Source: a phage
DNA length: 64,000 nucleotides
Sequence record: PZ357121.2
Reading direction: 5' to 3' (one strand)
Shown: one piece after another, positions 3,140 to 47,455 of the stretch
Numbering within the stretch: the stretch's first letter is position 1
Layout: the number at the start of each line of letters is the position of its first letter
The notes under the pieces: model-generated
Database searches by the model: none
What the model was told of the DNA's origin: nothing
Seen by the model: only the letters and a program-made list of their open reading frames with translations
Position numbers and translations under genes: made by a program

Positions 3140-3183
3140 ATAGGTCTATTATATCATAATATTTAGAGACCTATCTTAAAGCA
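3140..3183 (-). promoter_or_regulatory. promoter region upstream of gene 55: MotA-like box, TATAAT, 8-bp inverted repeat ATAGGTCT/AGACCTAT
   Basis: minus strand GCTTTAAGATAGGTCTCTAAATATTATGATATAATAGACCTATG. Confidence 0.45.
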
Positions 3184-4040: not shown

Positions 4041-4080
4041 CAACGAGAGAATTATACTCATCTCTCAAGAGTTTGTATAC
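4041..4080 (-). promoter_or_regulatory. early-type promoter with -10 TATAAT between inverted arms GAGAGA/TCTCTC (copy 1 of a ~50-bp repeat)
   Basis: minus strand GTATACAAACTCTTGAGAGATGAGTATAATTCTCTCGTTGGATAATAAAA; second copy at 35440-35486. Confidence 0.55.
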
Positions 4081-4319
4081 TATTTTTTAAGCATGAAAAG
4101 TAAGTAATTTGTATCACGTGGAGTAATATCAACACCCATATCAAAGATGCCTTTATAGATTGGGTATTTGTTTTCGGTTGTATCGAAGCTGAAACTATTT
4201 CCATCACAACTAACAGTAATAGCATCTGTTAAAATGTCATACTCAATCCTAACAATTGAATCCCCAATTTTAACGTCGAGGTGTTTTTTGAATTTGATAA
4301 AATCTAATTCTTGGGCCAT
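4080..4319 (-). CDS. hypothetical protein
   Basis: ORF track 79 aa. Confidence 0.5.
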   Translation of the reverse strand: MAQELDFIKFKKHLDVKIGDSIVRIEYDILTDAITVSCDGNSFSFDTTENKYPIYKGIFDMGVDITPRDTNYLLFMLKK

Positions 4320-4340: not shown

Positions 4341-4380
4341 CGATAGGAAGATAATAACATGTCTTCCTATCGTTGTACAT
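4341..4380 (-). promoter_or_regulatory. early-type promoter embedded in 11-bp inverted repeat CGATAGGAAGA/TCTTCCTATCG
   Basis: minus strand ATGTACAACGATAGGAAGACATGTTATTATCTTCCTATCG. Confidence 0.5.
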
Positions 4381-4721: not shown

Positions 4722-5015
4722 TCAACTGTAACGATAACATTCGTTAGCTTTACGTTTGGCTTCAGTATGAGAAGTATTATAATCATACTCTTCTTTACTG
4801 TAAACATCTTTTTTCAACTTACGAACTTCTTTGCGGAGTTGTCGATTCATTTCATTCTTGACTTCAGAATCAACGCCTTTCATACGCTTCCATTTATCAG
4901 AGCGGAATATGTTTTCAACCATGTCTTTGTGGCTAACACCGTCAGGAGCTTTACGCTTACCAAAATAGTCGTAATCGCGAACTTTCAAATCTTTACGACG
5001 ATATGTTTTACCCAT
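4722..5015 (-). CDS. hypothetical basic protein
   Basis: ORF track 4722..5042 (TTG); ATG at 5013-5015 with GAGGT upstream gives 97 aa. Confidence 0.5.
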   Translation of the reverse strand: MGKTYRRKDLKVRDYDYFGKRKAPDGVSHKDMVENIFRSDKWKRMKGVDSEVKNEMNRQLRKEVRKLKKDVYSKEEYDYNTSHTEAKRKANECYRYS

Positions 5016-7022: not shown

Positions 7023-8310
7023 TGGTGTTTAACCCTATGCATGATTTCTTTATTTTTACCGAGATTAAATCCGCGTTCGTTCGGATTTCCCAAATAACCA
7101 CATGTTCTTCTTATTGTGTTCATCTTTTTAGGATCAGTTTCTCCACAAACTGAACAAACAAATCCGTTTTCAGTAGGAGTCATTTCATGGGTACTTCCGC
7201 ATGTAAAACATTTATCTACTGGCATATTAACACCAAAATAATCTAAATGTTGTGCAGCATAATCCCATACGGCCTCAAGACCTTTTAGGTTATTTTTCAT
7301 ATCAGGAAGTTCAACATAAGAAATGTGACCGCCGGTCGCTATGAAATGATATGGCGCTTCACGAGAAATCTTTTCAAACGGAGTAATATTTTCTTCTACT
7401 GAAACGTGGAAACTGTTAGTGTACCAGCCTTTATCGGTAACATCCTTTACACTTCCATATTTTTCTGTATCGAGTTTACAGAAGCGATAACAAAGGTTTT
7501 CAGCAGGAGTCGAATATAAACTAAAAGCAAAACCGGTTCTTTCAGTCCACTGCTTAAGATGAGCATTCATTTTAGTTAAAATTTCTTGTCCAATATCACG
7601 ACCGACAAGAATATTCAATTCGTGAATACCAATGTATCCTAAGGACACTGAACTTCTACCGTTTTTAAATAACTCAATTATATCGTCATCAGGTTTAAGA
7701 CGAACCCCGAATGCACCTTCTTGGTAAAGAATAGGAGCAACAGTCGCTTTAACACCCTTTAAAGAACTAATTCTACACATCAAGGCTTCAAAACACAGAT
7801 CCATTCGTTCATTAAACAACTCGATAAATTTCTGTTCATTGAACTGTGTTCCAATATAAGAATCTAATGCGATGCGAGGAAGATTCAGCGTTACAACACC
7901 GAGATTATTACGTCCATCAAGAATTTCATTACCAGTCGAATCTTTCCATACGCTCAAGAAACTACGGCAACCCATTGGAGAAACTGGAACTGAAGAACCG
8001 GTAATAGCTTTATTATTCTTAACCGAAATAATGTCAGGATACATTCTTTTGCTTGCGCATTCTAACGCAAGTTGTTTAATATCATAGTTCGGATCATCTT
8101 TATAAAGATTAACACCTTCTTCAACAAACATAACAAGTTTAGGAAAAATAGGAGTTATTCCATCACGACCAAGACCTTTAATGCGGTTTTTAAGAATTGC
8201 CTTCTGAATAATTCGTTCAGTCCAGTCAATTCCCGTACCAAATGTAATTGTCACAAAAGGCGTTTGTCCATTAGAGCTGAAAAGTGTATTTACTTCATCA
8301 TTATATTCAG
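7019..8310 (-). CDS. nrdD: anaerobic ribonucleotide reductase NrdD, exon 2
   Basis: glycyl radical motif RRTCGYLGNP and zinc ribbon CFTCGS...CSVCGE at C-terminus; exon boundary inferred at about 8310. Confidence 0.85.
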
Positions 8311-9343
8311 CATGAGTCGCAAATTCATGCCCGTTTATATGAAACAACAAAATTTGGATAGTCCATAGATATGCAACGTTCTTTTATAGTGCTAGGATGA
8401 AAATTTAGCGCTTTAGCTGCTTCTATATAAGACGTATACTTAATACCGTCAACAACCACATATTCAGGAACTTTATGAATAGTAGTCTTAATACTCAAAA
8501 CAAGAGGATGAGTTTCGACTTCACTTTCAGTGCAATTTAAATATTCCGCTGCTTTTTTAAAACTTCTAAAAGTTTTATTTTTAAGCTTTATCGATACTTG
8601 TTTTTTACTTTTTCGACTATTGATATTATTTTGCACATGTTCCTTAGATCTTCCGTTTTTAGCATAATATTCAGCTACAGAAGATTTTATATTGTTTTTA
8701 TGAGATTCGGATAACACTTTACCCTTATGAGCATCTCTTAATTTTTGAATATGTTCTTCAGTATCCGGATGCTTATAAAACTTTTTACCGCCTATGGATT
8801 TATTTAAACATTTTTTGCTATAAAAATATTTACGTATGACCTCTTCTTCATGTTTTAATGCATCTTTATAACTATCAAATGTTTTTAAAATTATCCATTT
8901 AGTAGGTGTATCAGTTTTTAAGCGTTCATTTATATACTTAGATGACGTTGTGTAAGTTTTCCAGTTTGTGGGCTTGTTTTTAATTGTTCTAAATTTTTTA
9001 TAACCGATATAAATGTCACCATTAGAAAACTTAACTAAGTATGTAAATGCGTCTTTATCTTTTATTTTAGTACAACGTCTTTTTATCCATTTCATTGTTT
9101 CACCTCGTATTCATAAGATAATCTTATTTATACAAGATGACTGCTGCATGTCGCCATGCAGATTAGACTATATCTTCATCTTTCGATGCCGGCCGTTTCG
9201 AATAGCATTAGCTTCTATTCTACACCGCTACATTCATCACGGTTAGTCGTTAGGCATTTAGTTCAAAAGAACATTTAGCACGGGATTGTCTACTAGAGAG
9301 GTTCCCCGTTTAGACCGGTTTTACATGAGCCTGAATTAAATTA
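8311..9343 (-). mobile_element. group I self-splicing intron in nrdD (sunY-type), about 1033 nt, carrying a homing endonuclease ORF
   Basis: nrdD reading frame is interrupted; exon 1 ends ...TATGAGT followed by TAATTTAATTCAGG; conserved group I core GGTCTAAACGGGGAACCTCTCTAGTAGACAATCCCGTGCTAAAT at about 9255-9300; ORF sits 3' of the core; boundaries +/- a few nt. Confidence 0.8.
8325..9095 (-). CDS. I-TevII: intron-encoded GIY-YIG homing endonuclease, I-TevII-like
   Basis: 256 aa; N-terminal FTYLVKFSNGDIYIGYKK; NUMOD3-like repeats; C-terminal helix-turn-helix-like tail; GAGGTG before ATG at 9095. Confidence 0.75.
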   Translation of the reverse strand: MKWIKRRCTKIKDKDAFTYLVKFSNGDIYIGYKKFRTIKNKPTNWKTYTTSSKYINERLKTDTPTKWIILKTFDSYKDALKHEEEVIRKYFYSKKCLNKSIGGKKFYKHPDTEEHIQKLRDAHKGKVLSESHKNNIKSSVAEYYAKNGRSKEHVQNNINSRKSKKQVSIKLKNKTFRSFKKAAEYLNCTESEVETHPLVLSIKTTIHKVPEYVVVDGIKYTSYIEAAKALNFHPSTIKERCISMDYPNFVVSYKRA

Positions 9344-9881
9344 ACTCATACGCCTGGAATGCATCGTATACGTCTTTTTCTGTTTTAGATTGGGCATAAT
9401 TCAACGCATCAGCGATTTGCCATTTTTCTGCATCCTCAATATGTTTTGCATAGGTGCGTTTAACATAAGGAGAAAGAACTTTATCGACATTCGCAAATGT
9501 AGTTCCACCATACTGATGCGAAGCAACTTGTGCAGTAATTTGTGCCATAATTGCAGTAGCAACACCAATAGATTTAGGCGTTTCAATTTGAGCATTGCCG
9601 AGCTTAAATCCGTTTTCAAGCATTCCTTTTAAATCTACTAAACAGCAATTAGTAAAAGGCAATGATATACTGTAATCTAAATCATGAAAATGAATTAATC
9701 CAACATTATGGGCATTTACAATATGACTTGGAAGAATACGACAAGCGATATGTTTAGAAACAATACCGGCCATTAAATCTCTTTTTGTTGGAAAGACGCG
9801 AGAATCTTTGTTGGCGTTTTCTGTATTTAATTCTTTATCTTTATTTGAAATAAAATTTAAAACATCTTTTTCTAAAGACAT
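9344..9881 (-). CDS. nrdD: anaerobic ribonucleotide reductase NrdD, exon 1
   Basis: N-terminal 179 codons of NrdD (…NENANKDSRVFPTKRDLMAGIVSKH…FTNCCLVDLKGMLENGFKLGNAQIETPKSIGVATAIMAQ…); frame runs into intron stop at 9336. Confidence 0.85.
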
Positions 9882-10693
9882 AATTCTAATTTATCCTTTT
9901 GAAATTCTTCGTCTAAATATGGGTTCCAACCCATTTTAAACCTTTTGATGAAATTATCAATTCTAAATTTCGGTAAGTTTAAATCCGCAAAAATAGATGA
10001 TTTACTTTTAAAATCTGGACTTAAATAATCATATAAAATTTCTGCGTATTTTAACCATAATATACAAGTACCAGATTTAATTGCTCTCGGAGTTTTCCAA
10101 GGTTTTACACCATACATCGGATTTCCACTTCCTTTATGCCTGATAGAAGATGAAATTCCAATTTTAATTTTAGCTTCCTTTGTATGCGAAAATCCACGAT
10201 GTGGATTTTCTTTCCAGTATTTTTTAGAAGCTTCTGATATTTTCTTTCTGGCTAAATTAGTATGATGCTTTCCATAAAATCCATGATTTTTGCCTTTATT
10301 ACGATTTCTTTTAATCATGGTTATTGATTGCTTTTCTCTAGTTTCTTTAGAAGGAGAAATACCATATGTCGTAAATTGGCCATCAGCATATGCTAAATTA
10401 AAATACTCTTTATTCCATACATCTTTTTCTATATTCTTTTGAAATTCAGCTTCAATGCTAGTTATTTGTTCATCTCCGACTAATTGAAAATATAATATCT
10501 CAACTTTCGGCGTTTCTTTCAATAAGGCTTTTTGAAATTCGGAAGATGACGAAGACGAATAATAAAATTTACCATTTTTATCAATAATATTCGTTCCGTC
10601 AAAAGTGCAATTGGTTTTACTTCCAATGTAATAATATGGCGGGGTTTTAGCATTAATTCTACTAATAAACGATAGTTTATATACTACATTCAT
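9872..10693 (-). CDS. free-standing GIY-YIG family homing endonuclease-like protein (Seg-like)
   Basis: 273 aa; N-terminal VVYKLSF...PPYYYIGSKT; NUMOD3-like repeats (KETREKQSITMIKRNRNKGKNHGFYGK, HTKEAKIKIGISSSIRHKGSGNPMYG). Confidence 0.6.
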   Translation of the reverse strand: MNVVYKLSFISRINAKTPPYYYIGSKTNCTFDGTNIIDKNGKFYYSSSSSSEFQKALLKETPKVEILYFQLVGDEQITSIEAEFQKNIEKDVWNKEYFNLAYADGQFTTYGISPSKETREKQSITMIKRNRNKGKNHGFYGKHHTNLARKKISEASKKYWKENPHRGFSHTKEAKIKIGISSSIRHKGSGNPMYGVKPWKTPRAIKSGTCILWLKYAEILYDYLSPDFKSKSSIFADLNLPKFRIDNFIKRFKMGWNPYLDEEFQKDKLELCL

Positions 10694-13567: not shown

Positions 13568-14517
13568 TATAAAACCTCAATGGCATTTCGTAAACCGTCC
13601 GCTTTCGCATTCAGAGCTTTTAACGATTTAGTTTGTTCTGCAATCTGGGCTTCGACTTCTTTCAGACGAGATTTGAGATATTCGCGTTCTTCTCTTAAGT
13701 TATCAACTTTTTCTGCTTTAGGCTCTTTAATAGGCTTAGGCTTATACTCGTTAGGGTTCTTCAGCTTAATTTGAATACGAGAACTGAATAACATTGAACC
13801 GTTATCTTCGGTTTCATCATACATTTCTACCACGTCCATGATTCTTAACATCATGCGAAGTTTATAAGACAGCGAACGAATGGTTTTGTTGCGCTTATTA
13901 ATTTCTTCGGCTTTCATGGTACCGAGATTACGTGAGTAGTAATAAGGAACCTGGATATCAATTGTCAATGATGCGTTACCATTACCGGTTGGTTTGAATA
14001 CTGCAGTAACCCAATCTTTAACATGAACTTTATTTGTACGACCATCGCCGCCTGTGAATAATTTACGTGAATGTTTAAAAAGCATATTCACTTGGTTATT
14101 GAATTCACAAGCAAATTTATCGGCAAATTTAGTTTCAGGAATGGTAGATAACCAATCAGCCAAATGAGTCTTTTTAACATCGTTAATAATAGTAAATTCA
14201 ACTAAATCAGTTTTAGGTGTCACAGATTTAATAAAGCTCGGCTTCATAAAGTTTTTAATGTTATCACGAGCTACAGTAGAAGATAATAAACGAGAACGTT
14301 TGAACCATTGAAGCAGTGTCCCTAATGAATGAGAATACGCATTCTGAGTATCTTTACAGATATGATTTTCTTGGCCTGTGTATGTACCAAAATCGCGAAG
14401 AATACCACTTACTACAACTCGGTGTGGAACATCAAATCCTAATGAACCAGAAGCACGTTGGGCATGAACGTTAGCGATAAGACCTGCAAAATAATCAATG
14501 TAATGTGAACGTGTCAT
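13567..14517 (-). CDS. hypothetical 316-aa protein with C-terminal coiled coil
   Basis: ORF track; C-terminal heptad-like LREEREYLKSRLKEVEAQIAEQTKSLKALNAKADGLRNAIEVL; own promoter upstream. Confidence 0.55.
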   Translation of the reverse strand: MTRSHYIDYFAGLIANVHAQRASGSLGFDVPHRVVVSGILRDFGTYTGQENHICKDTQNAYSHSLGTLLQWFKRSRLLSSTVARDNIKNFMKPSFIKSVTPKTDLVEFTIINDVKKTHLADWLSTIPETKFADKFACEFNNQVNMLFKHSRKLFTGGDGRTNKVHVKDWVTAVFKPTGNGNASLTIDIQVPYYYSRNLGTMKAEEINKRNKTIRSLSYKLRMMLRIMDVVEMYDETEDNGSMLFSSRIQIKLKNPNEYKPKPIKEPKAEKVDNLREEREYLKSRLKEVEAQIAEQTKSLKALNAKADGLRNAIEVL

Positions 14518-16625: not shown

Positions 16626-17153
16626 TTATGCGTGAACCGTCTTTAAACGTTCTTCAAATTTCCGAAGAGTACTAATACGTTCTGCTTTCTGTTTTGTATA
16701 GTTTGCAATACGTTCTGAAGTGAGAGCGTATCGTTCGTTTACTGTTTCTTTCATGAAGTCAGGGATTTCACGAGAAGCTTTAATTTCATCAAACTTATCG
16801 AGTACTGCCTGGTCTTCAGCGATTAAATTTTCGTACATCTCGATATCTTTCTTGATAAACTCGATATCTTCCTGGGTTACTTTGGATAAACGAGATGCTT
16901 TATCCTTTTTGTACTGCTCGTTAGTTTCACGAGACCAGAATAATGTACGTTTTTTGTTAGTGTTTTTGTAGACTTCCACAATTCCAACTGAATCGATGAT
17001 AGCAATCCAATTCCAGCGAGATTTGAAAATCTGACCTCCGTCCACGGTAATCTCGTTACCATAAGCAACGTCATTAAAGAACTTGCTTTGTGCTTCAGAT
17101 TTAAATTTACCGTCGTTATAATTTACCAGGTTGAAAATATCTTTAGCGTTCAT
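16626..17153 (-). CDS. hypothetical protein
   Basis: ORF track 175 aa; GGAGGT before ATG. Confidence 0.55.
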   Translation of the reverse strand: MNAKDIFNLVNYNDGKFKSEAQSKFFNDVAYGNEITVDGGQIFKSRWNWIAIIDSVGIVEVYKNTNKKRTLFWSRETNEQYKKDKASRLSKVTQEDIEFIKKDIEMYENLIAEDQAVLDKFDEIKASREIPDFMKETVNERYALTSERIANYTKQKAERISTLRKFEERLKTVHA

Positions 17154-17172: not shown

Positions 17173-17209
17173 ATAGGTCTATAATAACATAACCATAGAC
17201 CTTGTAAAC
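17173..17209 (-). promoter_or_regulatory. early-type promoter with -10 inside hairpin (arms AGGTCTAT/ATAGACCT)
   Basis: minus strand GTTTACAAGGTCTATGGTTATGTTATTATAGACCTATC. Confidence 0.5.
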
Positions 17210-21049: not shown

Positions 21050-21056
21050 ATTATTC

Positions 21057-21230
21057 ACCAATTAAAGTTTCAACAAAATTCACCAAAGCATTCTGGCAAA
21101 CATCAACCTGATTTTCATAAAAGTCTTCGTTATCATTTACTGCATGATAAGCTACATCATTTAAATCTGAATCAGCTTCACGTAAGTCATGGATAAGGTC
21201 CATCAATTTATTAGCTTGTTCACGGGTCAT
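21057..21230 (-). CDS. hypothetical 57-aa acidic protein (below ORF-track cutoff)
   Basis: hand translation MTREQANKLMDLIHDLREADSDLNDVAYHAVNDNEDFYENQVDVCQNALVNFVETLIGE. Confidence 0.35.
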
Positions 21231-21337
21231 TTTACCATACTCGTTTCAATAAGATTCACTATGCCATTTACCATGTTATAAGTAAACATCGGATAATTGT
21301 ATTGTACTACAACATAAGAGATAAGCAAAAGTTTCAT
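21227..21337 (-). CDS. hypothetical 36-aa hydrophobic peptide, first ORF after promoter
   Basis: MKLLLISYVVVQYNYPMFTYNMVNGIVNLIETSMVK; GGAG Shine-Dalgarno; stop overlaps next start (ATGA). Confidence 0.25.
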   Translation of the reverse strand: MKLLLISYVVVQYNYPMFTYNMVNGIVNLIETSMVK

Positions 21338-21356: not shown

Positions 21357-21395
21357 GATAGGACTACTATAACATAGTCCTATCAAGATGTAAAC
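21357..21395 (-). promoter_or_regulatory. hairpin-embedded early promoter, family A (GTTTAC, 10-bp arms GATAGGACTA/TAGTCCTATC flanking TGTTATAG)
   Basis: minus strand GTTTACATCTTGATAGGACTATGTTATAGTAGTCCTATC; same hairpin at 31346, 32641, 39733 (arms perfect in 3 of 4 copies). Confidence 0.6.
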
Positions 21396-21797: not shown

Positions 21798-21847
21798 CTC
21801 CTCTAGTAAGTAAGGACTACTATAACACAACCTGAGGAGAAGTAAAC
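21798..21847 (-). promoter_or_regulatory. early-type promoter inside a long hairpin whose 3' arm is the Shine-Dalgarno (CTCCTC...GAGGAG)
   Basis: minus strand GTTTACTTCTCCTCAGGTTGTGTTATAGTAGTCCTTACTTACTAGAGGAGAACATTATG. Confidence 0.5.
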
Positions 21848-25624: not shown

Positions 25625-25632
25625 TTTGATTT

Positions 25633-25681
25633 CTCCTCTAGTTGACAGGTCTATAGTAACACAACTAGAGGAGAAGTAAAC
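25633..25681 (-). promoter_or_regulatory. early-type promoter inside 12-bp inverted repeat CTCCTCTAGTTG/CAACTAGAGGAG; 3' arm is the regB Shine-Dalgarno
   Basis: minus strand GTTTACTTCTCCTCTAGTTGTGTTACTATAGACCTGTCAACTAGAGGAGAAATCAAAATG. Confidence 0.55.
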
Positions 25682-28542: not shown

Positions 28543-28596
28543 TTCCTCCAAGTAGTTGATGAATGTATAGTATCAAAGTCCTTGGAGGAAGTAAAC
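28543..28596 (-). promoter_or_regulatory. early-type promoter inside 10-bp inverted repeat TTCCTCCAAG/CTTGGAGGAA; 3' arm is the denV Shine-Dalgarno
   Basis: minus strand GTTTACTTCCTCCAAGGACTTTGATACTATACATTCATCAACTACTTGGAGGAAATTATG. Confidence 0.55.
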
Positions 28597-31020: not shown

Positions 31021-31326
31021 TTATTTTCCTCGACATTCTTTAATGAAATTTTCTAGATTGGTAGATTCAATAGCTTTTTTACGAGCTTCTGCGTGTTCTT
31101 CTTCAGACAATTTACATTTATAATTGACCCAGACATTATGGTCGAAACTAGTCGTGGCATATAATAACAATGCTCCAACGAATAGCAAAAACGGCGATAA
31201 GAATACAAAACCAGGAACACCATCCATATCGTAAGCCTTTTGTAATACTGCAACAGAAAGAGCTGCGTAAAAAGGTGATGCAAATATTGTTAAAAGACCA
31301 ATTCGGTTGGTTTCGCCTAATTTCAT
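31021..31326 (-). CDS. hypothetical membrane protein with C-terminal NFIKECR motif
   Basis: 101 aa; GAGGAG before ATG. Confidence 0.5.
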   Translation of the reverse strand: MKLGETNRIGLLTIFASPFYAALSVAVLQKAYDMDGVPGFVFLSPFLLFVGALLLYATTSFDHNVWVNYKCKLSEEEHAEARKKAIESTNLENFIKECRGK

Positions 31327-31345: not shown

Positions 31346-31384
31346 AATAGGACTACTATAACATAGTCCTATCATGTTGTAAAC
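31346..31384 (-). promoter_or_regulatory. hairpin-embedded early promoter, family A copy
   Basis: plus strand aataggactactataacatagtcctatcatgttgtaaac. Confidence 0.6.
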
Positions 31385-32381: not shown

Positions 32382-32621
32382 TTAAATTTCACGACATGCG
32401 ATATCATATTCATCCCAGAGGTCATCGTGTGAAGCCTCTACCAATGGAACGATTGTACCATTTATGTCTTCATTATAAGGGCAAATTGTACAGTGCGCAT
32501 CTTCGAATCGAATGCCTTTGTGTTCAGATTTTTTATAACGCATATCGAATATCTTTGCAAACTTTTCACGAGTAATGGTTTTAGCAACCACTTCGGTTCC
32601 AACACTTTCGTAATAAATCAT
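32382..32621 (-). CDS. hypothetical protein
   Basis: ORF track 79 aa; GGAG before ATG. Confidence 0.5.
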   Translation of the reverse strand: MIYYESVGTEVVAKTITREKFAKIFDMRYKKSEHKGIRFEDAHCTICPYNEDINGTIVPLVEASHDDLWDEYDIACREI

Positions 32622-32640: not shown

Positions 32641-32679
32641 GATAGGACTACTATAACATAGCCCTATCTTGTTGTAAAC
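32641..32679 (-). promoter_or_regulatory. hairpin-embedded early promoter, family A copy (one arm mismatch)
   Basis: plus strand gataggactactataacatagccctatcttgttgtaaac. Confidence 0.55.
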
Positions 32680-35439: not shown

Positions 35440-35486
35440 TATTATCCAATGAGAGCATTATACTCTGCTCTCAAGAGTTTGTAAAT
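35440..35486 (-). promoter_or_regulatory. early-type promoter with -10 between inverted arms GAGAGC/GCTCTC (copy 2 of ~50-bp repeat; compensatory change versus copy at 4041-4080)
   Basis: minus strand ATTTACAAACTCTTGAGAGCAGAGTATAATGCTCTCATTGGATAATAAA. Confidence 0.55.
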
Positions 35487-35780: not shown

Positions 35781-36086
35781 TTAATTTTTCCAACTTAACA
35801 ACTTGTAGTGTCCTTCATTCATACGTGGTTTATCCCAAGAAATACTAATATATGATTCGCTGTCAATAGAAGTCGCCGGGTTTTTCTCTACCGTAAGACC
35901 TTCACTTTCCAGCCATTCAATAGTATTTGCGCATAAATCGGAAGAACACCTCATTGGAAACCGGCAAGATTTTTCACCTTTAGCTGCAGTGTTATACATC
36001 TTTTCTAAAATACGCTTTTGCACGTTTTTAAAAATAGTTTCAGCAGATTCTTCAGATTTTTTATTCAGTTCAGTATAAAGATTCAT
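35781..36086 (-). CDS. hypothetical protein
   Basis: ORF track 35781..36113; ATG at 36086 with GAGGAG upstream gives 101 aa. Confidence 0.45.
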   Translation of the reverse strand: MNLYTELNKKSEESAETIFKNVQKRILEKMYNTAAKGEKSCRFPMRCSSDLCANTIEWLESEGLTVEKNPATSIDSESYISISWDKPRMNEGHYKLLSWKN

Positions 36087-36103
36087 AATATTCTCCTCAT
36101 TAA

Positions 36104-36141
36104 TAGGGCTCATAATATCTCAATCATAAGCCCGTGTAAAC
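36104..36141 (-). promoter_or_regulatory. early-type promoter with -10 inside imperfect hairpin (GGGCTTATGA...TATGAGCCC)
   Basis: minus strand GTTTACACGGGCTTATGATTGAGATATTATGAGCCCTATTAATGAGGAG. Confidence 0.45.
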
Positions 36142-37296: not shown

Positions 37297-37372
37297 TGGT
37301 GCCTCTAGAAAGATTTGAACTCTCACCATTAACCTTAGAACGATTATATGCTATCCATTACACTATAGAGGC
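37297..37372 (-). tRNA. tRNA-Arg (anticodon UCU), CCA encoded
   Basis: hand-folded cloverleaf: acceptor GCCTCTA/TAGAGGC, D-arm GTGT-AATGGATA-GCAT, anticodon stem TAATC/GGTTA with loop GTTCTAA, T-arm GAGAG-TTCAAAT-CTTTC, then ACCA. Confidence 0.8.
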
Positions 37373-38023
37373 AATTAAATTATTTACAATATCTTCTTTA
37401 TAAACTTCAGCATAATGAAGTTCATATATTTCCCATCCTAATGATTTTATAATATCATGGCGTTCTTTATAATAAGGGGCCAAAATCTTTTTCTTAGGAT
37501 TGGAGTAATGTTGGTTTCCATTAACTTCAATAATAATCTTTTTATCTATTAAAGCAATATCCGTGCAATACGCTCGGTTTTTAACCGGTTGGTATTCTTC
37601 AATAAATGAAATTCCGTTTTCTATTAATTTAGATTTCAAAAATTCACAAGGCACAGATTTAAATTTTGTATTTTTCTTCCAAGGATGTTTATCAGGGTTT
37701 TCATTCAACCATTTTTTCCGAGCATTAGATATTTTTATTCTAGATTCCTCAGAGTGTTCTCTACCTAATGAAGCGGCTGACAATTTTTGTCTAGTCTCTT
37801 CCGAAATTACTACAGGGACACCAGTCTTTTTAGATACAACATACTGGTTTAAATTACCTGAAGCTATACGTGCTTTATTCATTGCTGCAATGGCTGATTT
37901 AGAACTTTCTTTATACAATTCCAATTTAGGGTTGGATTTACACCATCTAGTGTGGTTAGCCATCCATCCTTTAGGTTTATTAGAAATATCAAATTCCATA
38001 TTACAATGTTTACAAATGCTCAT
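37358..38023 (-). CDS. putative free-standing endonuclease: N-terminal zinc finger, NUMOD3-like linker, C-terminal Vsr/DUF559-like (PD-(D/E)xK) domain
   Basis: 221 aa from ATG at 38023 (AGGAGA upstream); CKHCN...HTRWC; SEETRQKLSAASLGREHSEESRIKISNARKKW; IEVNGNQHY...ERHDIIKSLGWEIYELHY; last 5 codons overlap the 5' end of tRNA-Arg. Confidence 0.5.
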   Translation of the reverse strand: MSICKHCNMEFDISNKPKGWMANHTRWCKSNPKLELYKESSKSAIAAMNKARIASGNLNQYVVSKKTGVPVVISEETRQKLSAASLGREHSEESRIKISNARKKWLNENPDKHPWKKNTKFKSVPCEFLKSKLIENGISFIEEYQPVKNRAYCTDIALIDKKIIIEVNGNQHYSNPKKKILAPYYKERHDIIKSLGWEIYELHYAEVYKEDIVNNLIASIV

Positions 38024-38097
38024 TACCAATTATCTCCTATAAAATATAGGAGTATTTATTATTTGGATAGAGCACTTAATTTACTTCGTTTAAATTA

Positions 38098-38169
38098 CTG
38101 GCGCACTTGGACTCGAACCAAGATAAAGGAGTTAACAGCTCCCCGTAATAACCTTTATACGATGCACCA
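38098..38169 (-). tRNA. tRNA-Asn (anticodon GUU), CCA not encoded
   Basis: hand-folded: acceptor TGGTGCA/TGCGCCA (one G-U), D-loop with GG, anticodon stem GGGAG/CTCCT with loop CTGTTAA, T-arm CTTGG-TTCGAGT-CCAAG; D-stem has one mismatch. Confidence 0.6.
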
Positions 38170-38175
38170 TTTGTT

Positions 38176-39142: not shown

Positions 39143-39526
39143 TTAACCTTTATCAACAATAGTATGTGTATGGGCATTTACGATTTGCCACCAGTCAAAA
39201 CTATCGCCAAATCGTTTTGATTTATTGTCTTCAATAATTTGGCGTAATTCATCTTCAGTAGCGGCTTTCGCGATTAAATCAGCATATCCACCACGAGGAT
39301 AATAATTATCACCTGCAAAAAGTAAAAAGTTTGGTTTAATATTATTAAACTCTTCAAGAGTAATAACTTTTCCTGTCGGTTGAACAATCTCTACATATTT
39401 ATATCCTAATTTTTGAGCAGCATCTACTGCTTCAAGCAAAGTATCATGAGCCCATCCAATTTGACAACCTGGCTTTTCAGATGGATTAGCCTGATAATCC
39501 GCGTACACTTTATACATTCTATTCAC
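39143..39526 (-). CDS. hypothetical protein
   Basis: ORF track 127 aa. Confidence 0.5.
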   Translation of the reverse strand: MNRMYKVYADYQANPSEKPGCQIGWAHDTLLEAVDAAQKLGYKYVEIVQPTGKVITLEEFNNIKPNFLLFAGDNYYPRGGYADLIAKAATEDELRQIIEDNKSKRFGDSFDWWQIVNAHTHTIVDKG

Positions 39527-39725
39527 CTTTAGAAATTTTATCCATAACGATAGCGATTAAGCCGATTAGAAATGCTACTACCAATGAGATAGAATTTTCG
39601 GTTGTTGTCAGTAGTCCGCAAATGAATCCTACAAACATCGAAAAACTAAAAGCCATTGAAGCAATTACTACAGCAACATTACGAATCAGTTCAGCGCGTT
39701 TCATTTTATTTCTCCATTTACTCAT
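39519..39725 (-). CDS. hypothetical small membrane protein
   Basis: ORF track 68 aa; two hydrophobic segments. Confidence 0.5.
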   Translation of the reverse strand: MSKWRNKMKRAELIRNVAVVIASMAFSFSMFVGFICGLLTTTENSISLVVAFLIGLIAIVMDKISKGE

Positions 39726-39732
39726 TTGTTTT

Positions 39733-39771
39733 GATAGGACTACTATAACATAGTCCTATCATCATGTAAAC
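39733..39771 (-). promoter_or_regulatory. hairpin-embedded early promoter, family A copy
   Basis: plus strand gataggactactataacatagtcctatcatcatgtaaac. Confidence 0.6.
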
Positions 39772-39773
39772 TA

Positions 39774-40037
39774 TTAAATACCAGCTTCGCGTTTAACATA
39801 ATCGACGTAAGCTTGGATAGCTTTCTTGCTGGTAATTTTTACCTGACCACGACCATTGCCTTCTTTAGAGTTTTTCTTAACAACTACATTACCATCTTTA
39901 ACACCCCATACATGGACGTAAGTACCGATGTTTCGGTCGTAGAACATTGCATGGTCGTTGTTGTAAGAGAATGATTCGTAGTTCTCTGTCAGAGTAGAAG
40001 ATTGAGATTCGGCGATAAATTCTTTATAGGTTTTCAT
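39774..40037 (-). CDS. internal head protein (IPI-like) with leader MKTYKEFIAES
   Basis: 87 aa; capsid-targeting leader; located next to 57B as ipI is in T4. Confidence 0.6.
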   Translation of the reverse strand: MKTYKEFIAESQSSTLTENYESFSYNNDHAMFYDRNIGTYVHVWGVKDGNVVVKKNSKEGNGRGQVKITSKKAIQAYVDYVKREAGI

Positions 40038-40062: not shown

Positions 40063-40101
40063 GATAGGATGATAGTAACACACCATCATCCTTATGTAAA
40101 C
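40063..40101 (-). promoter_or_regulatory. hairpin-embedded early promoter, family A architecture with different arms (GGATGAT/ATCATCC)
   Basis: plus strand gataggatgatagtaacacaccatcatccttatgtaaac. Confidence 0.5.
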
Positions 40102-40114
40102 TGTTTTGTGAAAA

Positions 40115-40800
<686 letters not shown>

Positions 40801-42279: not shown

Positions 42280-43101
42280 TTAAGATTTCCAAACAGTATT
42301 CGCAGAGAAACGTTTTCCTTTTGACATAAACTGCTGAGTAGGTAACATGATTATGTTAGCCCAGTCTTTAGGAGCTATTTCTGTTATTGTTCCTCTAATG
42401 TGGCCTGGCAGGTATGCTTTAATCATTTTGTCAGCACCTTGAAATCCTTTCACCTTGCTCCAGTCTATCTTAAACTTTGTGTTATTAGTAATAGTAGTTG
42501 TGCTAGCATATTGCTTCAGCAATTCTTCAAGAAACTGTTGTCGTGCTTTAGGTGGGATATAGTGCAAGTTTAACCCATACATCAAATTATGTTTACCTAA
42601 TCCTAAATAAATAATCAAAGGATATCGGTCCCAGTATGGCAAAGTATCTTTATGTTTAGCATCATACACGTAAGTATAAATTTTGCCTGGCGTAGGCTTG
42701 ACTACTTTATGACCTTTTACACTTTTCTTAATTGTTTCAACAAACCACTTAGATGATTTGTTGTTTACTGCTGCGCCTTCATTTCTAATCTTTTCTCGTA
42801 TTGAACTGCGAAACGAGTTTATCATCAGAAGTTGACGTTCTTGCTTATTGAGTTTATTTTTAGGTTTAGATTCAAGCGTTTCAATTTTCTGTGCAGTCTT
42901 AATAGATGATGCATATCTAGACATTGCAGATGTAAACGACGAGTATTTTATTCCTTTTGATTCTGCAAATGCTTTTGCAGTGATTCCTTTCTCTTTAGCT
43001 TTCTTGTATTCTAATCCTATCTCAATCCATTTTCTTTCATTCATAGACTGAGCAATCTTAGTGGCTTGTACGCCTTCAGATATAATTTGGAATATGCTCA
43101 T
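42280..43101 (-). CDS. 2: DNA end protector protein gp2
   Basis: 273 aa; position and length match T4 gp2; start overlaps stop of upstream endonuclease gene (ATGA). Confidence 0.75.
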
Positions 43102-43748
43102 TCAACTTTCCTCATTTTACAATTATCACCATGCCAACGTTTATAAGGCGCAGGTTTACATTCTATACCGCAGTATTGGCATATCTTATTATGAGTATTT
43201 AAGTATCCTAATCTCATGTTTTCCTTTTCTTCAGGAGTTCTATTTCGTCCTGTAAGAGTATTTTTTATTTTGTCTCTAATCTCTTTGGGCATTATCCTGC
43301 CTCGGCCTGCTTTACCTATTTTAGCTTTATGCTCTTCGGATAATTTCTTACCCTTCTTAGCTAAACTCATTTTCTTTTTAGATTCTTCGGAAATAGGACC
43401 TAATTTTCTACCTCTGGATGAATCGCCTATTCTTTTTCGCACATCAATAGAACGGCCTCGTCCTCCCTTTCCTCCTAGGTCTATATTATATGTATCTTCT
43501 CTATCCACAAAAGATTGATCAACTAATTCTGCTTCCTTTTGGAAAGCCATTTCTTCATTTAGTAATTCGTCACCGGTATCATACACATATAATACTTCTT
43601 TTACAAAATTATCTAATCCGTATTTAGCATGGGCTTTTAAGATAATTTTACCTGTTCCTTTATAAGAATCATCCGGATTATTAGTTTTATGAACACCTAT
43701 ATAAATTTTATTATTTACGATGTTAGTTATTTTATATACAGTATACAT
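43098..43748 (-). CDS. free-standing GIY-YIG homing endonuclease (Seg-like) between genes 4 and 2
   Basis: 216 aa; canonical GIY-YIG N-terminus [21 protein letters not shown]; NUMOD3 repeats; C-terminal zinc finger CQYCGIECK...HGDNCK. Confidence 0.75.
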
Positions 43749-43749
43749 A

Positions 43750-44199
43750 TCATCCCTTATATCCTAAACGACGTAAACCGTCTTCTGTGAGAATTCTGAA
43801 TTTTATATTTCTCTTTTCTGCGACAGCAGAAGCAGCTTTCCATTTATCACAGTTCACAGACCACACGTAGATCTCGTTCATATAACGTTTCTTTGCTGCG
43901 GTCGTAAGATTTGCAGGCTTAATAGGTGGCTGAGTTTCTTTCTTTGGTTTTATTTCTACAAAGAACTCTTGACCTGATGCATCTTTCATCCATATGTCCA
44001 TATAGTATCGACGTTTCTTACCTTCGGCATTACAAAAATATGGAATTACTGCTGTTTCACTACCCCATGCAATAATTTCTGGATTTTTATCTAACCATTC
44101 GAAAAAGAATTTTTCCCAGTTTGAACGATACGTTATTTTGGTATGGTCTCCACGGTATTTTTTTAAATTTTTTGGGACCCATTTACCAGAGTAGGCCAT
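43750..44199 (-). CDS. 4: head completion protein gp4
   Basis: ORF track 43750..44343; ATG at 44197-44199 (MAYSGKWVPKNLKKYRGD) with GGAGGA upstream gives 149 aa, matching T4 gp4 length and N-terminus. Confidence 0.8.
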   Translation of the reverse strand: MAYSGKWVPKNLKKYRGDHTKITYRSNWEKFFFEWLDKNPEIIAWGSETAVIPYFCNAEGKKRRYYMDIWMKDASGQEFFVEIKPKKETQPPIKPANLTTAAKKRYMNEIYVWSVNCDKWKAASAVAEKRNIKFRILTEDGLRRLGYKG

Positions 44200-46572: not shown

Positions 46573-46575
46573 ATA
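46568..46575 (+). promoter_or_regulatory. T4 late promoter TATAAATA overlapping gene 5 stop, upstream of the segC-like gene
   Basis: exact TATAAATA 17 nt before the start at 46592. Confidence 0.5.
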
Positions 46576-46591
46576 ATTCCAGAGGTAAATT

Positions 46592-47455
46592 ATGAAGAAA
46601 TCCAAAACCATACAATTCCGTTACATTTATAAATCAACAGTAACCAACCCAAAGGGGTTGGTTCGAATATATATAGGAAAGCATGAATCCAGATATTTTA
46701 ATCTAGAGGATGATAATTACGTAGGAAGCGGGGATTATATACAAAAGATTAAAAACAAACCAGGCTATGCTATAGATTTCGAAATTATCGAATTCGTTTC
46801 AACACTCGATGTTTTAAATGAAAGAGAAAAATTTTGGATATCTGAATATAGAAAAACAGGCCAGTGTGTTAATATAAAAGACGGTGGAGATGGATTTTCT
46901 TCAAACGATTTAAAACGAATGTGGTCTAATCCTGAGTATCGAGAAACTCAACTTAAAGCTTTGGCAAAAGGAAAATCTACAAAAGAATTTTCAGAAAAAA
47001 TTTCAAAAATTAATAAACTTAGATGTTCGGAATCGGAATATCGAAAGAAAATGAGTAATGCGATGAAAACTGCTTTTGAAAATGATCCCACATTAAAAAT
47101 TCGTATTTCTAATACTGTCAAATCTTTATGGAAATCCGATGAATATAGAAACAAATTAATTAATCATCCAGGAAAAATAGAAGGAACGAAAAAATCCTGG
47201 AATAATCCTTTAATAAGAAAATCAAGATTAGATACTAGAAATAAAAAACTAAGATCAGTTGAACCTTGGATTAGTATTGAAAAAGTCAAAAAACTTTGGG
47301 AGGATTTGGGAAAACCTCATCCGCAGAAATATAAATGGTTTAGAGAAAAAGCAATTGAACATAATCTACCGGATGTAAGTTATAACGCAATTTTAAAAGC
47401 ATTGAAAAAATGTGATTATAAATTTACACCATTGGAGAATTCAGTAATTGGCTAA
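46592..47455 (+). CDS. free-standing GIY-YIG homing endonuclease, SegC-like (between 5 and 5.1)
   Basis: 287 aa; FRYIYKSTVTNPKGLVRIYIGKHE, YVGSGDY, KFWISEY; repeated W-x-N/S-x-EYR motifs. Confidence 0.7.
   Translation: MKKSKTIQFRYIYKSTVTNPKGLVRIYIGKHESRYFNLEDDNYVGSGDYIQKIKNKPGYAIDFEIIEFVSTLDVLNEREKFWISEYRKTGQCVNIKDGGDGFSSNDLKRMWSNPEYRETQLKALAKGKSTKEFSEKISKINKLRCSESEYRKKMSNAMKTAFENDPTLKIRISNTVKSLWKSDEYRNKLINHPGKIEGTKKSWNNPLIRKSRLDTRNKKLRSVEPWISIEKVKKLWEDLGKPHPQKYKWFREKAIEHNLPDVSYNAILKALKKCDYKFTPLENSVIG

Follow-up and report, generated by a model that had tools for sequence, protein, structure and literature searches.

Composite elements that join an early promoter to a stem-loop (PeSLs) were defined by Arbiol et al. 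(2010) in phages RB49 and phi1, with stems often lying in the -35 to -10 interval or overlapping the -10 (PMC2839356). The RB49/phi1 PeSLs formed mini-circles, and when the stem-loop of a phi1 PeSL was inserted between lacZ and its promoter, expression fell approximately as much as with rrnB T1, a very strong terminator (PMC2839356). The elements of the T-even internal-protein (IP) locus have been regarded as analogs, not homologs, of the RB49/phi1 PeSLs (PMC2839356); they carry T4 early promoters and weaker, AT-rich stems (Repoila 1994, as told in PMC2839356). PeSLs of the PST/T4 type, with the consensus TTTACW-N17-TAYWAT and AGNA-loop-TCNT stems, were described by Comeau et al. in 2014 (PMC4122927). 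Inhibitory hairpins specific to read-through RNA have also been described, for the T4 genes e, soc, 49 and I-TevI (PMC3014915).

The window analyzed here, i.e. the whole stretch of 64,000 nucleotides from sequence record PZ357121.2, is approximately 95-96% identical to Mosigvirus (RB69-like) genomes and approximately 70-87% identical to T4; judged by its sequence, its source is an RB69-like T-even phage, a Mosigvirus. From 1 to 44 kb the window is an early region on the minus strand, with gene 55 at its start and gene 4 at its end; beyond it come late baseplate genes, on the plus strand. A census of the window found about 21 early-type promoters (GTTTAC-N17-TGnTAnnnT) on the minus strand, and in ten of these a stem of 8 bp or more spans the -10. 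All ten are minus-strand promoters of the early region, and the census found no hairpin promoter in the late region. For RB69, 57 early promoters have been predicted (Nolan et al. 2006); promoter features are absent from the T4 RefSeq annotation.

Four segments of the window were missing or far shorter in the relatives ATK47, RB69 and S143_2: 8298-10689 inside nrdD, 37300-38175 beside tRNA genes (with a 223-aa ORF at 37358-38029), 43101-43778 between genes 2 and 4 (with a 216-aa ORF at 43098-43748) and 46574-47449 past gene 5. None of the four had a promoter at its boundary, and their positions suggest introns or homing-endonuclease genes.

An earlier note on this DNA had described a family of four early promoters embedded in hairpins, and further copies of the same architecture with different arms. 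The four-copy family was recovered: a 28-nt core, GATAGGACTA-TGTTATAG-TAGTCCTATC, was matched on the minus strand at 21357, 31346, 32641 and 39733 with 0-1 mismatch, and no copy is expected from 100 dinucleotide shuffles. In this family (family A), read on the minus strand, GTTTAC is followed by 5 nt, a 10-nt arm, TGT-TATAG and the complementary arm; downstream from the 3' arm come an A-rich stretch, a Shine-Dalgarno (SD) sequence and ATG. TATAGT, preceded by an extended-10 TG, serves as the -10; its final T is also base 1 of the 3' arm. Three of the four copies had been called perfect; only those at 21357 and 39733 are, since the 31346 copy has a terminal G.T. The single mismatch noted in the 32641 copy was found to be a G.T inside the stem. 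At 40063, 17173, 4341 and 36104 the copies with variant arms were found again, and their arms are complementary. The features are the following:

21357-21395, minus strand: hairpin early promoter with perfect arms, -35 GTTTAC at 21390-21395.
Parts of this copy: 5' arm 21375-21384; loop TGTTATAG 21367-21374; -10 TATAGT 21366-21371; 3' arm 21357-21366; predicted start at A 21359; downstream, a 36-aa mobD.2 homolog (ORF 21227-21337, ATG 21337).
21051-21230: 59-aa ORF, separate from the 36-aa mobD.2 homolog that the 21357 promoter serves.
31346-31384, minus strand: hairpin early promoter of family A with a terminal G.T, before a 101-aa ORF (31021-31326, RB69ORF133c homolog).
32641-32679, minus strand: hairpin early promoter of family A with an internal G.T, before a 79-aa ORF (32382-32621, RB69ORF135c homolog).
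39733-39771, minus strand: hairpin early promoter of family A with perfect arms, before a 61-aa tRNA.4 homolog (39519-39704).
40063-40101, minus strand: hairpin early promoter, arms AGGATGATGG/CTATCATCCT, before an internal-protein gene (39774-40037).
17173-17209, minus strand: hairpin early promoter, arms AGGTCTAT/ATAGACCT, before an nrdC.8 homolog (16626-17153).
4341-4380, minus strand: hairpin early promoter with -35 ATGTAC and 12-bp arms ACGATAGGAAGA/TCTTCCTATCGT, before a 79-aa ORF (4080-4319, RB69ORF075c homolog).
36104-36141, minus strand: hairpin early promoter, arms GGGCTTATGAT/ATTATGAGCCC with two G.U pairs, before a 101-aa ORF (35781-36086).
35457-35486, minus strand: further hairpin early promoter, absent from the earlier list, with an ATTTAC -35, arms TGAGAGCA/TGCTCTCA and -10 TATAAT, upstream from an e.6 homolog.
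4776-4805, minus strand: marginal further copy.

The GTTTAC-N17-TGnTAnnnT pattern was seen in the eight main copies, the -35 of the 4341 copy being ATGTAC, and matches the PST/T4 consensus, in agreement with the claim that these are early promoters; their activity in the window is predicted from sequence. The stems are 8-13 bp long: the promoter spacer supplies the 5' arm and the region of the start site the 3' arm. TGn and most of the -10 lie in the loop, so that the arms flank the -10 as had been proposed. The stop codon of the upstream gene lies between 13 nt before the -35 and a 1-nt overlap with it. The 30 nt upstream from the promoters are 60-83% AT (60% for the 4341 copy) against a window mean of 63%. 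The hairpin promoters are followed by the SD and ATG of ORFs of 36-175 aa, mostly hypothetical, and a median of 21 nt separates the 3' arm from the ATG (112 elements).

These elements are the T-even form of the PeSL cassette, a kind already known. The resemblance suspected in the earlier note was confirmed, as early promoter, stem-loop, SD/ATG and upstream stop all fit the T4-like PeSLs, those of PST/T4 included. Like the elements of the window, PST/T4 PeSLs combine a T4-type early promoter with variable AT-rich AGNA...TCNT stems (AGGA...TCCT in the window) and a 3' SD and ATG; both precede small variable ORFs, internal-protein genes among them, and lie beside indels between close relatives, in the window at some of the copies. 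The PST/T4 catalogue covers Tequatrovirus, whereas the window belongs to an RB69-like Mosigvirus, and according to the PST legend the stems are "just upstream" of the promoter, while those of the window straddle the -10. RB49/phi1 PeSLs share the composite of promoter and stem-loop, the intergenic location, the repetition and the association with ORFan cassettes, but their promoters are near-perfect TTGACA/TATAAT and their stems polyG/polyC; the terminator and mini-circle data concern the phi1/RB49 elements only. REP-type intergenic stem-loops, which stabilise the mRNA upstream of them, and intrinsic terminators also place a stable hairpin directly past a stop codon; the window hairpins differ from intrinsic terminators in having no U-tract and from REP elements in being fused to a promoter. 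The window thus extends the known PeSL class to RB69-like phages, which is mainly confirmatory. What is added here is incremental: the mismatches are asymmetric in favour of the RNA strand, no canonical terminator signal was seen, breakpoints gave no signal specific to hairpins, and a class of early promoters shows SD pairing.

The transcription start predicted from the sequence is the A of CCTA|TC, 7 nt past the -10. The earlier note had placed it inside the 3' arm, and this geometry is backed by one further element, which had been listed there among the copies of the same architecture:

3140-3174, minus strand: ortholog of the T4 middle promoter P55, a separate class; arms ATAGGTCT/AGACCTAT with a 19-nt loop.

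This region aligns to T4 40139-40254, upstream from gene 55. The mapped start of T4 P55 is 40180 (PMC2988021, Table 1), which is the A of CTA|TG at the site orthologous to 3140, 7 nt past a shared TATAAT. The element itself cannot be counted among the hairpin early promoters: it has no GTTTAC -35, its loop is 19 nt long, its fold is weak (z = -1.97, with 9/200 shuffles as good) and it aligns to P55. Its consensus-like MotA box, TGCTTTA, is 23 nt from TATAAT, the usual distance being 12 +/- 1. The 3' arm of T4 P55 carries a G.T (AGATCTAT). Since the RNA made from a hairpin promoter would start inside the 3' arm, it would lack the 5' arm, and only read-through RNA from upstream could fold.

The complementarity of the arms was compared with several controls. 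Folded as RNA, the eight main copies gave -13.4 to -18.6 kcal/mol (z -3.7 to -7.2), and none of 200 shuffles was as good; the DNA strands were folded too (see below). In a chimera test, the upstream half of each promoter was paired with the downstream half of another promoter. A stem of at least 8 bp was present in 6 of 18 independent promoters, which was matched in 1 of 5000 permutations, and the mean MFE of the self-paired promoters, -8.8 kcal/mol, was reached in 0/5000. Of the 67 inverted-repeat pairs found in the 64 kb, the 25 longest included just three that were perfect, spaced and 11 nt or longer, and all three were promoter hairpins.

A collection of viral sequences was scanned with a pattern that left everything free except the -35, TGn, the -10 and a CCTATC downstream. 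The matches were 120 stretches of T4-like genomes with 116 distinct promoters; 28 of these promoters had 7 or more of 10 arm positions paired, and the distribution was bimodal. In 1.43 Mb of T4-like DNA, a helix score of at least 7 was obtained for 25% of 507 distinct promoter sites and for 1.7% of 4968 same-strand control windows. When 150 promoters, hairpin and plain ones together, were aligned without gaps, with the -35 and -10 as the only anchors, 50.9% of cells were paired against 46.7 +/- 0.8 after shuffling (0/500); slid registers of this alignment gave 31-44%, all below the true register. The arm complementarity is thus far above that of shuffled controls. Such a hairpin is missing from approximately three quarters of early promoters.

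Among the 112 hairpin promoters, 29 arm families were distinguished whose sequences are unrelated (for example AGTTGACAAGATT/AATCTTGTCAACT and TCCTAGAATTGTG/CACAATTCTAGGA), and in every family the loop contains TGn and most of the -10. Covariation in the 150-promoter alignment was 0.233 against 0.177 +/- 0.008 after shuffling (0/500). Past the -10, the consensus of the 150 promoters is CCTATCAAAA, the promoter's own conserved start region. As this sequence belongs to the promoter, most of the 3' arm is promoter consensus, and it is the spacer that has adapted. A CAACTAC before the SD is common to many 5' leaders, and the consensus reaches well into the transcribed leader.

Orthologous promoters were compared as well. 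At the mobD.2 promoter, arm pair 4 is A-T in the window, G.T in RB69 and S143_2, and G-C in ATK47; the T4 mobD.2 promoter has a perfect 13-bp stem whose sequence is unrelated to the window arms. The tRNA.4 promoter has a hairpin in 5/5 genomes, with different arms. Pairing is therefore kept by compensatory change, also at orthologous promoters in RB69, ATK47 and T4. A degenerate pattern, QYNYPMFTYN, gave 6 loci only, too few for an alignment of orthologs. At the nrdC.8 promoter the -10 hairpin is present in Mosigviruses and absent in T4, which indicates that the hairpin is dispensable at any single site.

These data bear on the possibility that the hairpins have no function and are by-products of repeat spread or of an inverted duplication of the start region into the spacer. 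Four near-identical copies in one window and a 3' arm made largely of promoter consensus would be expected from such an origin; the existence of 29 unrelated arm families, the stepwise compensation at mobD.2 with a different perfect stem in T4, and covariation above that of the slid controls, which retain relatedness, make it very improbable. The proposal that the arms vary while pairing is kept, and hence that structure is under selection, was in this way upheld.

The unrelated arm sequences also speak on a possible role of the arms as operator half-sites, at which a dimeric protein of the phage would shut off early promoters. The palindrome is centred on the -10, and the mechanism of early-promoter shut-off in T4 is unknown (PMC2988021), both of which would suit an operator. 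Arm families that are unrelated to each other would be unreadable by one DNA-binding protein, and the palindrome is missing from most early promoters. The operator reading was rejected on the unrelated arm sequences, and we consider it the least credible of those weighed here.

The hairpin was said to exist only in DNA or in read-through RNA. The two can be told apart by the imperfect arms: G.U pairs are tolerated in the sense RNA, while a cruciform also needs the strand in which the same positions are A.C. Among the non-Watson-Crick arm positions of the 29 families there were 16 independent G.T events and 3 A.C events (p = 0.004 vs 1:1). Chance helices in coding sequence gave G.T:A.C = 46:30; the G.T excess, which rests on 19 events, is approximately 3.5-fold over this kind of compositional null, with p of about 0.03 by hand calculation. 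In copies that contain G.T the antisense DNA strand folds poorly; the 36104 copy forms 11 pairs in the sense DNA strand and 5 in the antisense. For a perfect copy, the sense and antisense DNA strands gave equally stable folds. The predominance of G.T over A.C speaks, with moderate strength given the small sample, for an RNA hairpin of the sense strand rather than for a DNA cruciform. Of the two places proposed for the hairpin, read-through RNA is favoured and DNA disfavoured.

A DNA-level role would consist of an inverted repeat that, as a cruciform or hairpin, silences the promoter or is cut (e.g. by endonuclease VII) for cassette recombination. Homology to the relatives was examined by comparing breakpoints between the window and ATK47, RB69 and S143_2. 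Homology breaks were found at hairpin promoters (31377-31384, 36098-36100 and 39715/39773) and at plain promoters (18678, 25685 and 35743). In ATK47 (14177-14439) an extra 66-codon ORF lies between two hairpin promoters with different arms; at 31377-31384 the window has instead a single hybrid promoter, joined in the GT[T/G]TACAA of the -35 with an 8-nt overlap. This mapped ATK47/window crossover is thus in the -35, outside the arms, and shows that the promoter core can serve as homology for a crossover.

Over the 93 gene junctions compared in the three relatives, breakpoints occurred at 9 of 20 promoter junctions and at 20 of 73 others (OR 2.2, p = 0.17), and they were found at 4/10 hairpin promoters against 5/10 plain promoters. 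The suggestion that the hairpins are recombination sites that shuffle cassettes therefore holds for the promoter core as a place of crossover; neither an enrichment of breakpoints at promoters nor a role specific to the hairpin was supported. Gene swaps do break at some hairpins, at a rate that does not differ from that of plain promoters in this sample.

The internal-protein gene at 39774-40037 (minus strand) has a conserved leader, MKTYKEFIAE, with breakpoints at 39985-40014; homology to relatives that carry other IP genes picks up again within its 5' coding region. Since homology resumes in the shared IP leader, the leader, besides the promoter, can anchor IP cassette exchange.

A DNA-level inverted repeat would be suited by the perfect 10-12 bp arms around an 8-nt AT-rich centre in several copies, by the equal folding of both strands of a perfect copy and by the breakpoints at some copies. 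It agrees poorly with the 16:3 ratio of G.T to A.C and an antisense strand often unable to form the stem, with the location of the mapped crossover and with breakpoint rates that do not differ between hairpin and plain promoters. We regard it as improbable.

The position of the hairpin, directly past the stop codon of the upstream gene, raises the question of termination, as the earlier note had proposed a terminator/promoter switch. The 10 nt past the stem are 54% A and 20% T. When a U-tract was looked for after the stem, at least 4 T in 8 nt were present in 4/112 hairpin promoters and TTTT in 1/112, and a terminator scan flagged none of the hairpin promoters. A canonical intrinsic terminator was consequently rejected on sequence, and the proposal fails in its canonical sense. 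The location at the gene end, within about 13 nt of the upstream stop, together with the missing U-tract, suggests to us a hairpin that serves the upstream message as its 3' end or as insulation, rather than a canonical terminator. This hairpin (class 1) leaves the SD untouched and ends approximately 21 nt before the ATG, so that a direct translational effect is not evident. A GGAG (RegB-type) SD was not linked to the hairpin (55/91 vs 129/201 SD-bearing promoters).

A composite of promoter and true terminator, in which the hairpin stops the upstream polymerase and the embedded promoter restarts transcription, is nonetheless the alternative to which we give most weight, while still thinking it rather unlikely. 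The site past the stop codon would suit it, selection at the RNA level is compatible with it, and the drop of the phi1 lacZ reporter to about the level given by rrnB T1 (PMC2839356) fits a terminator better than a pure stability barrier. That assay cannot separate termination from effects on RNA stability or translation, and it was made with a polyG/polyC stem, which the AT-rich stems of the window do not resemble; the A-rich sequence past the stem and the negative scan also count against it.

We favour, at a probability of roughly 65%, a T-even PeSL whose hairpin is selected as a structure of the read-through RNA and most likely insulates cassettes as the 3'-end hairpin of the upstream message; its functional effect is what we infer from this. 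The element is built on a strong early promoter of sigma-70 type, in which AT-rich DNA is followed by GTTTAC, 17 nt of spacer, TGn, TAnnnT and CCTATCAAAA; it is placed between the stop codon of the preceding gene (within about 13 nt) and a small early ORF with its SD and ATG. In approximately one of four early promoters the spacer has become complementary to the start region, giving an 8-13 bp hairpin with TGn and the -10 in its loop. RNA started at the promoter would begin at the A of CCTA|TC, within the 3' arm, and could not form the hairpin; sense RNA coming from upstream would fold it, and it is in this read-through transcript that the structure would be selected. There it might act as a barrier to exonucleases, as a pause for RNA polymerase or as a weak non-canonical attenuator; a stabilising role for the upstream mRNA is likewise only conjectural. 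The repeated promoter cores would provide short homology for the gain and loss of cassettes, for which the hairpin would not be needed.

In a second class of promoters the spacer carries an anti-SD run (TCTCC...) that pairs with the Shine-Dalgarno region. The following cases were found in the window:

25632-25681, minus strand: regB early promoter, spacer TTCTCCTCTAGTTG pairing with the SD-containing CAACTAGAGGAGAA over 14 bp.
28567-28596, minus strand: denV promoter of the second class.
21819-21847, minus strand: a further promoter of the second class.

The class is also present in T4 (regB -22.4, denV -18.0 and nrdC.8 -20.9 kcal/mol), where it is conserved with covariation. Pairing between spacer and SD was observed in 8.9% of 358 promoters and in 1.35% of chimeras, with 16 covarying arm pairs. 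The nrdC.8 promoter belongs to class 1 in the window and to class 2 in T4. By its sequence, the second-class structure would be possible only in read-through RNA and would hide the ribosome site there.

The hairpins of T4 e, soc, 49 and I-TevI are similar to those of the window in that they form only in a longer transcript started upstream, the proximal promoter starting within the structure. They differ from class 1 in sequestering the SD/AUG and in having late or middle promoters; SD sequestration of their kind is found here only in the second class (regB, denV).

Both classes together allow a broader and tentative proposal, to which we give clearly less credence than to the reading of the hairpin as an insulating read-through structure. 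The spacers of T-even early promoters might make every read-through transcript differ in structure from the promoter's own, a genome-wide "transcript-origin discrimination" acting at the RNA level by means other than canonical termination. It is possible, and no more firmly held, that this is what unites the approximately one quarter of early promoters that fold over the start region with the approximately 9% that sequester the SD, orthologs being able to switch from one to the other (nrdC.8). Transcript-origin discrimination as a general principle of early promoters has not been described before.

The strand asymmetry, the missing terminator signal and the absence of a link between hairpins and breakpoints should be useful to specialists. 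Taken together, they suggest that the labels "terminator" and "recombination site" given to T-even elements rest on analogy with RB49/phi1, and direct testing of both is needed. PeSL-type cassettes are proposed "linker" sequences with which T4-like phages swap small accessory genes while leaving the neighbours undisturbed. If transcript-origin discrimination is true, each early cassette would depend on its own promoter.
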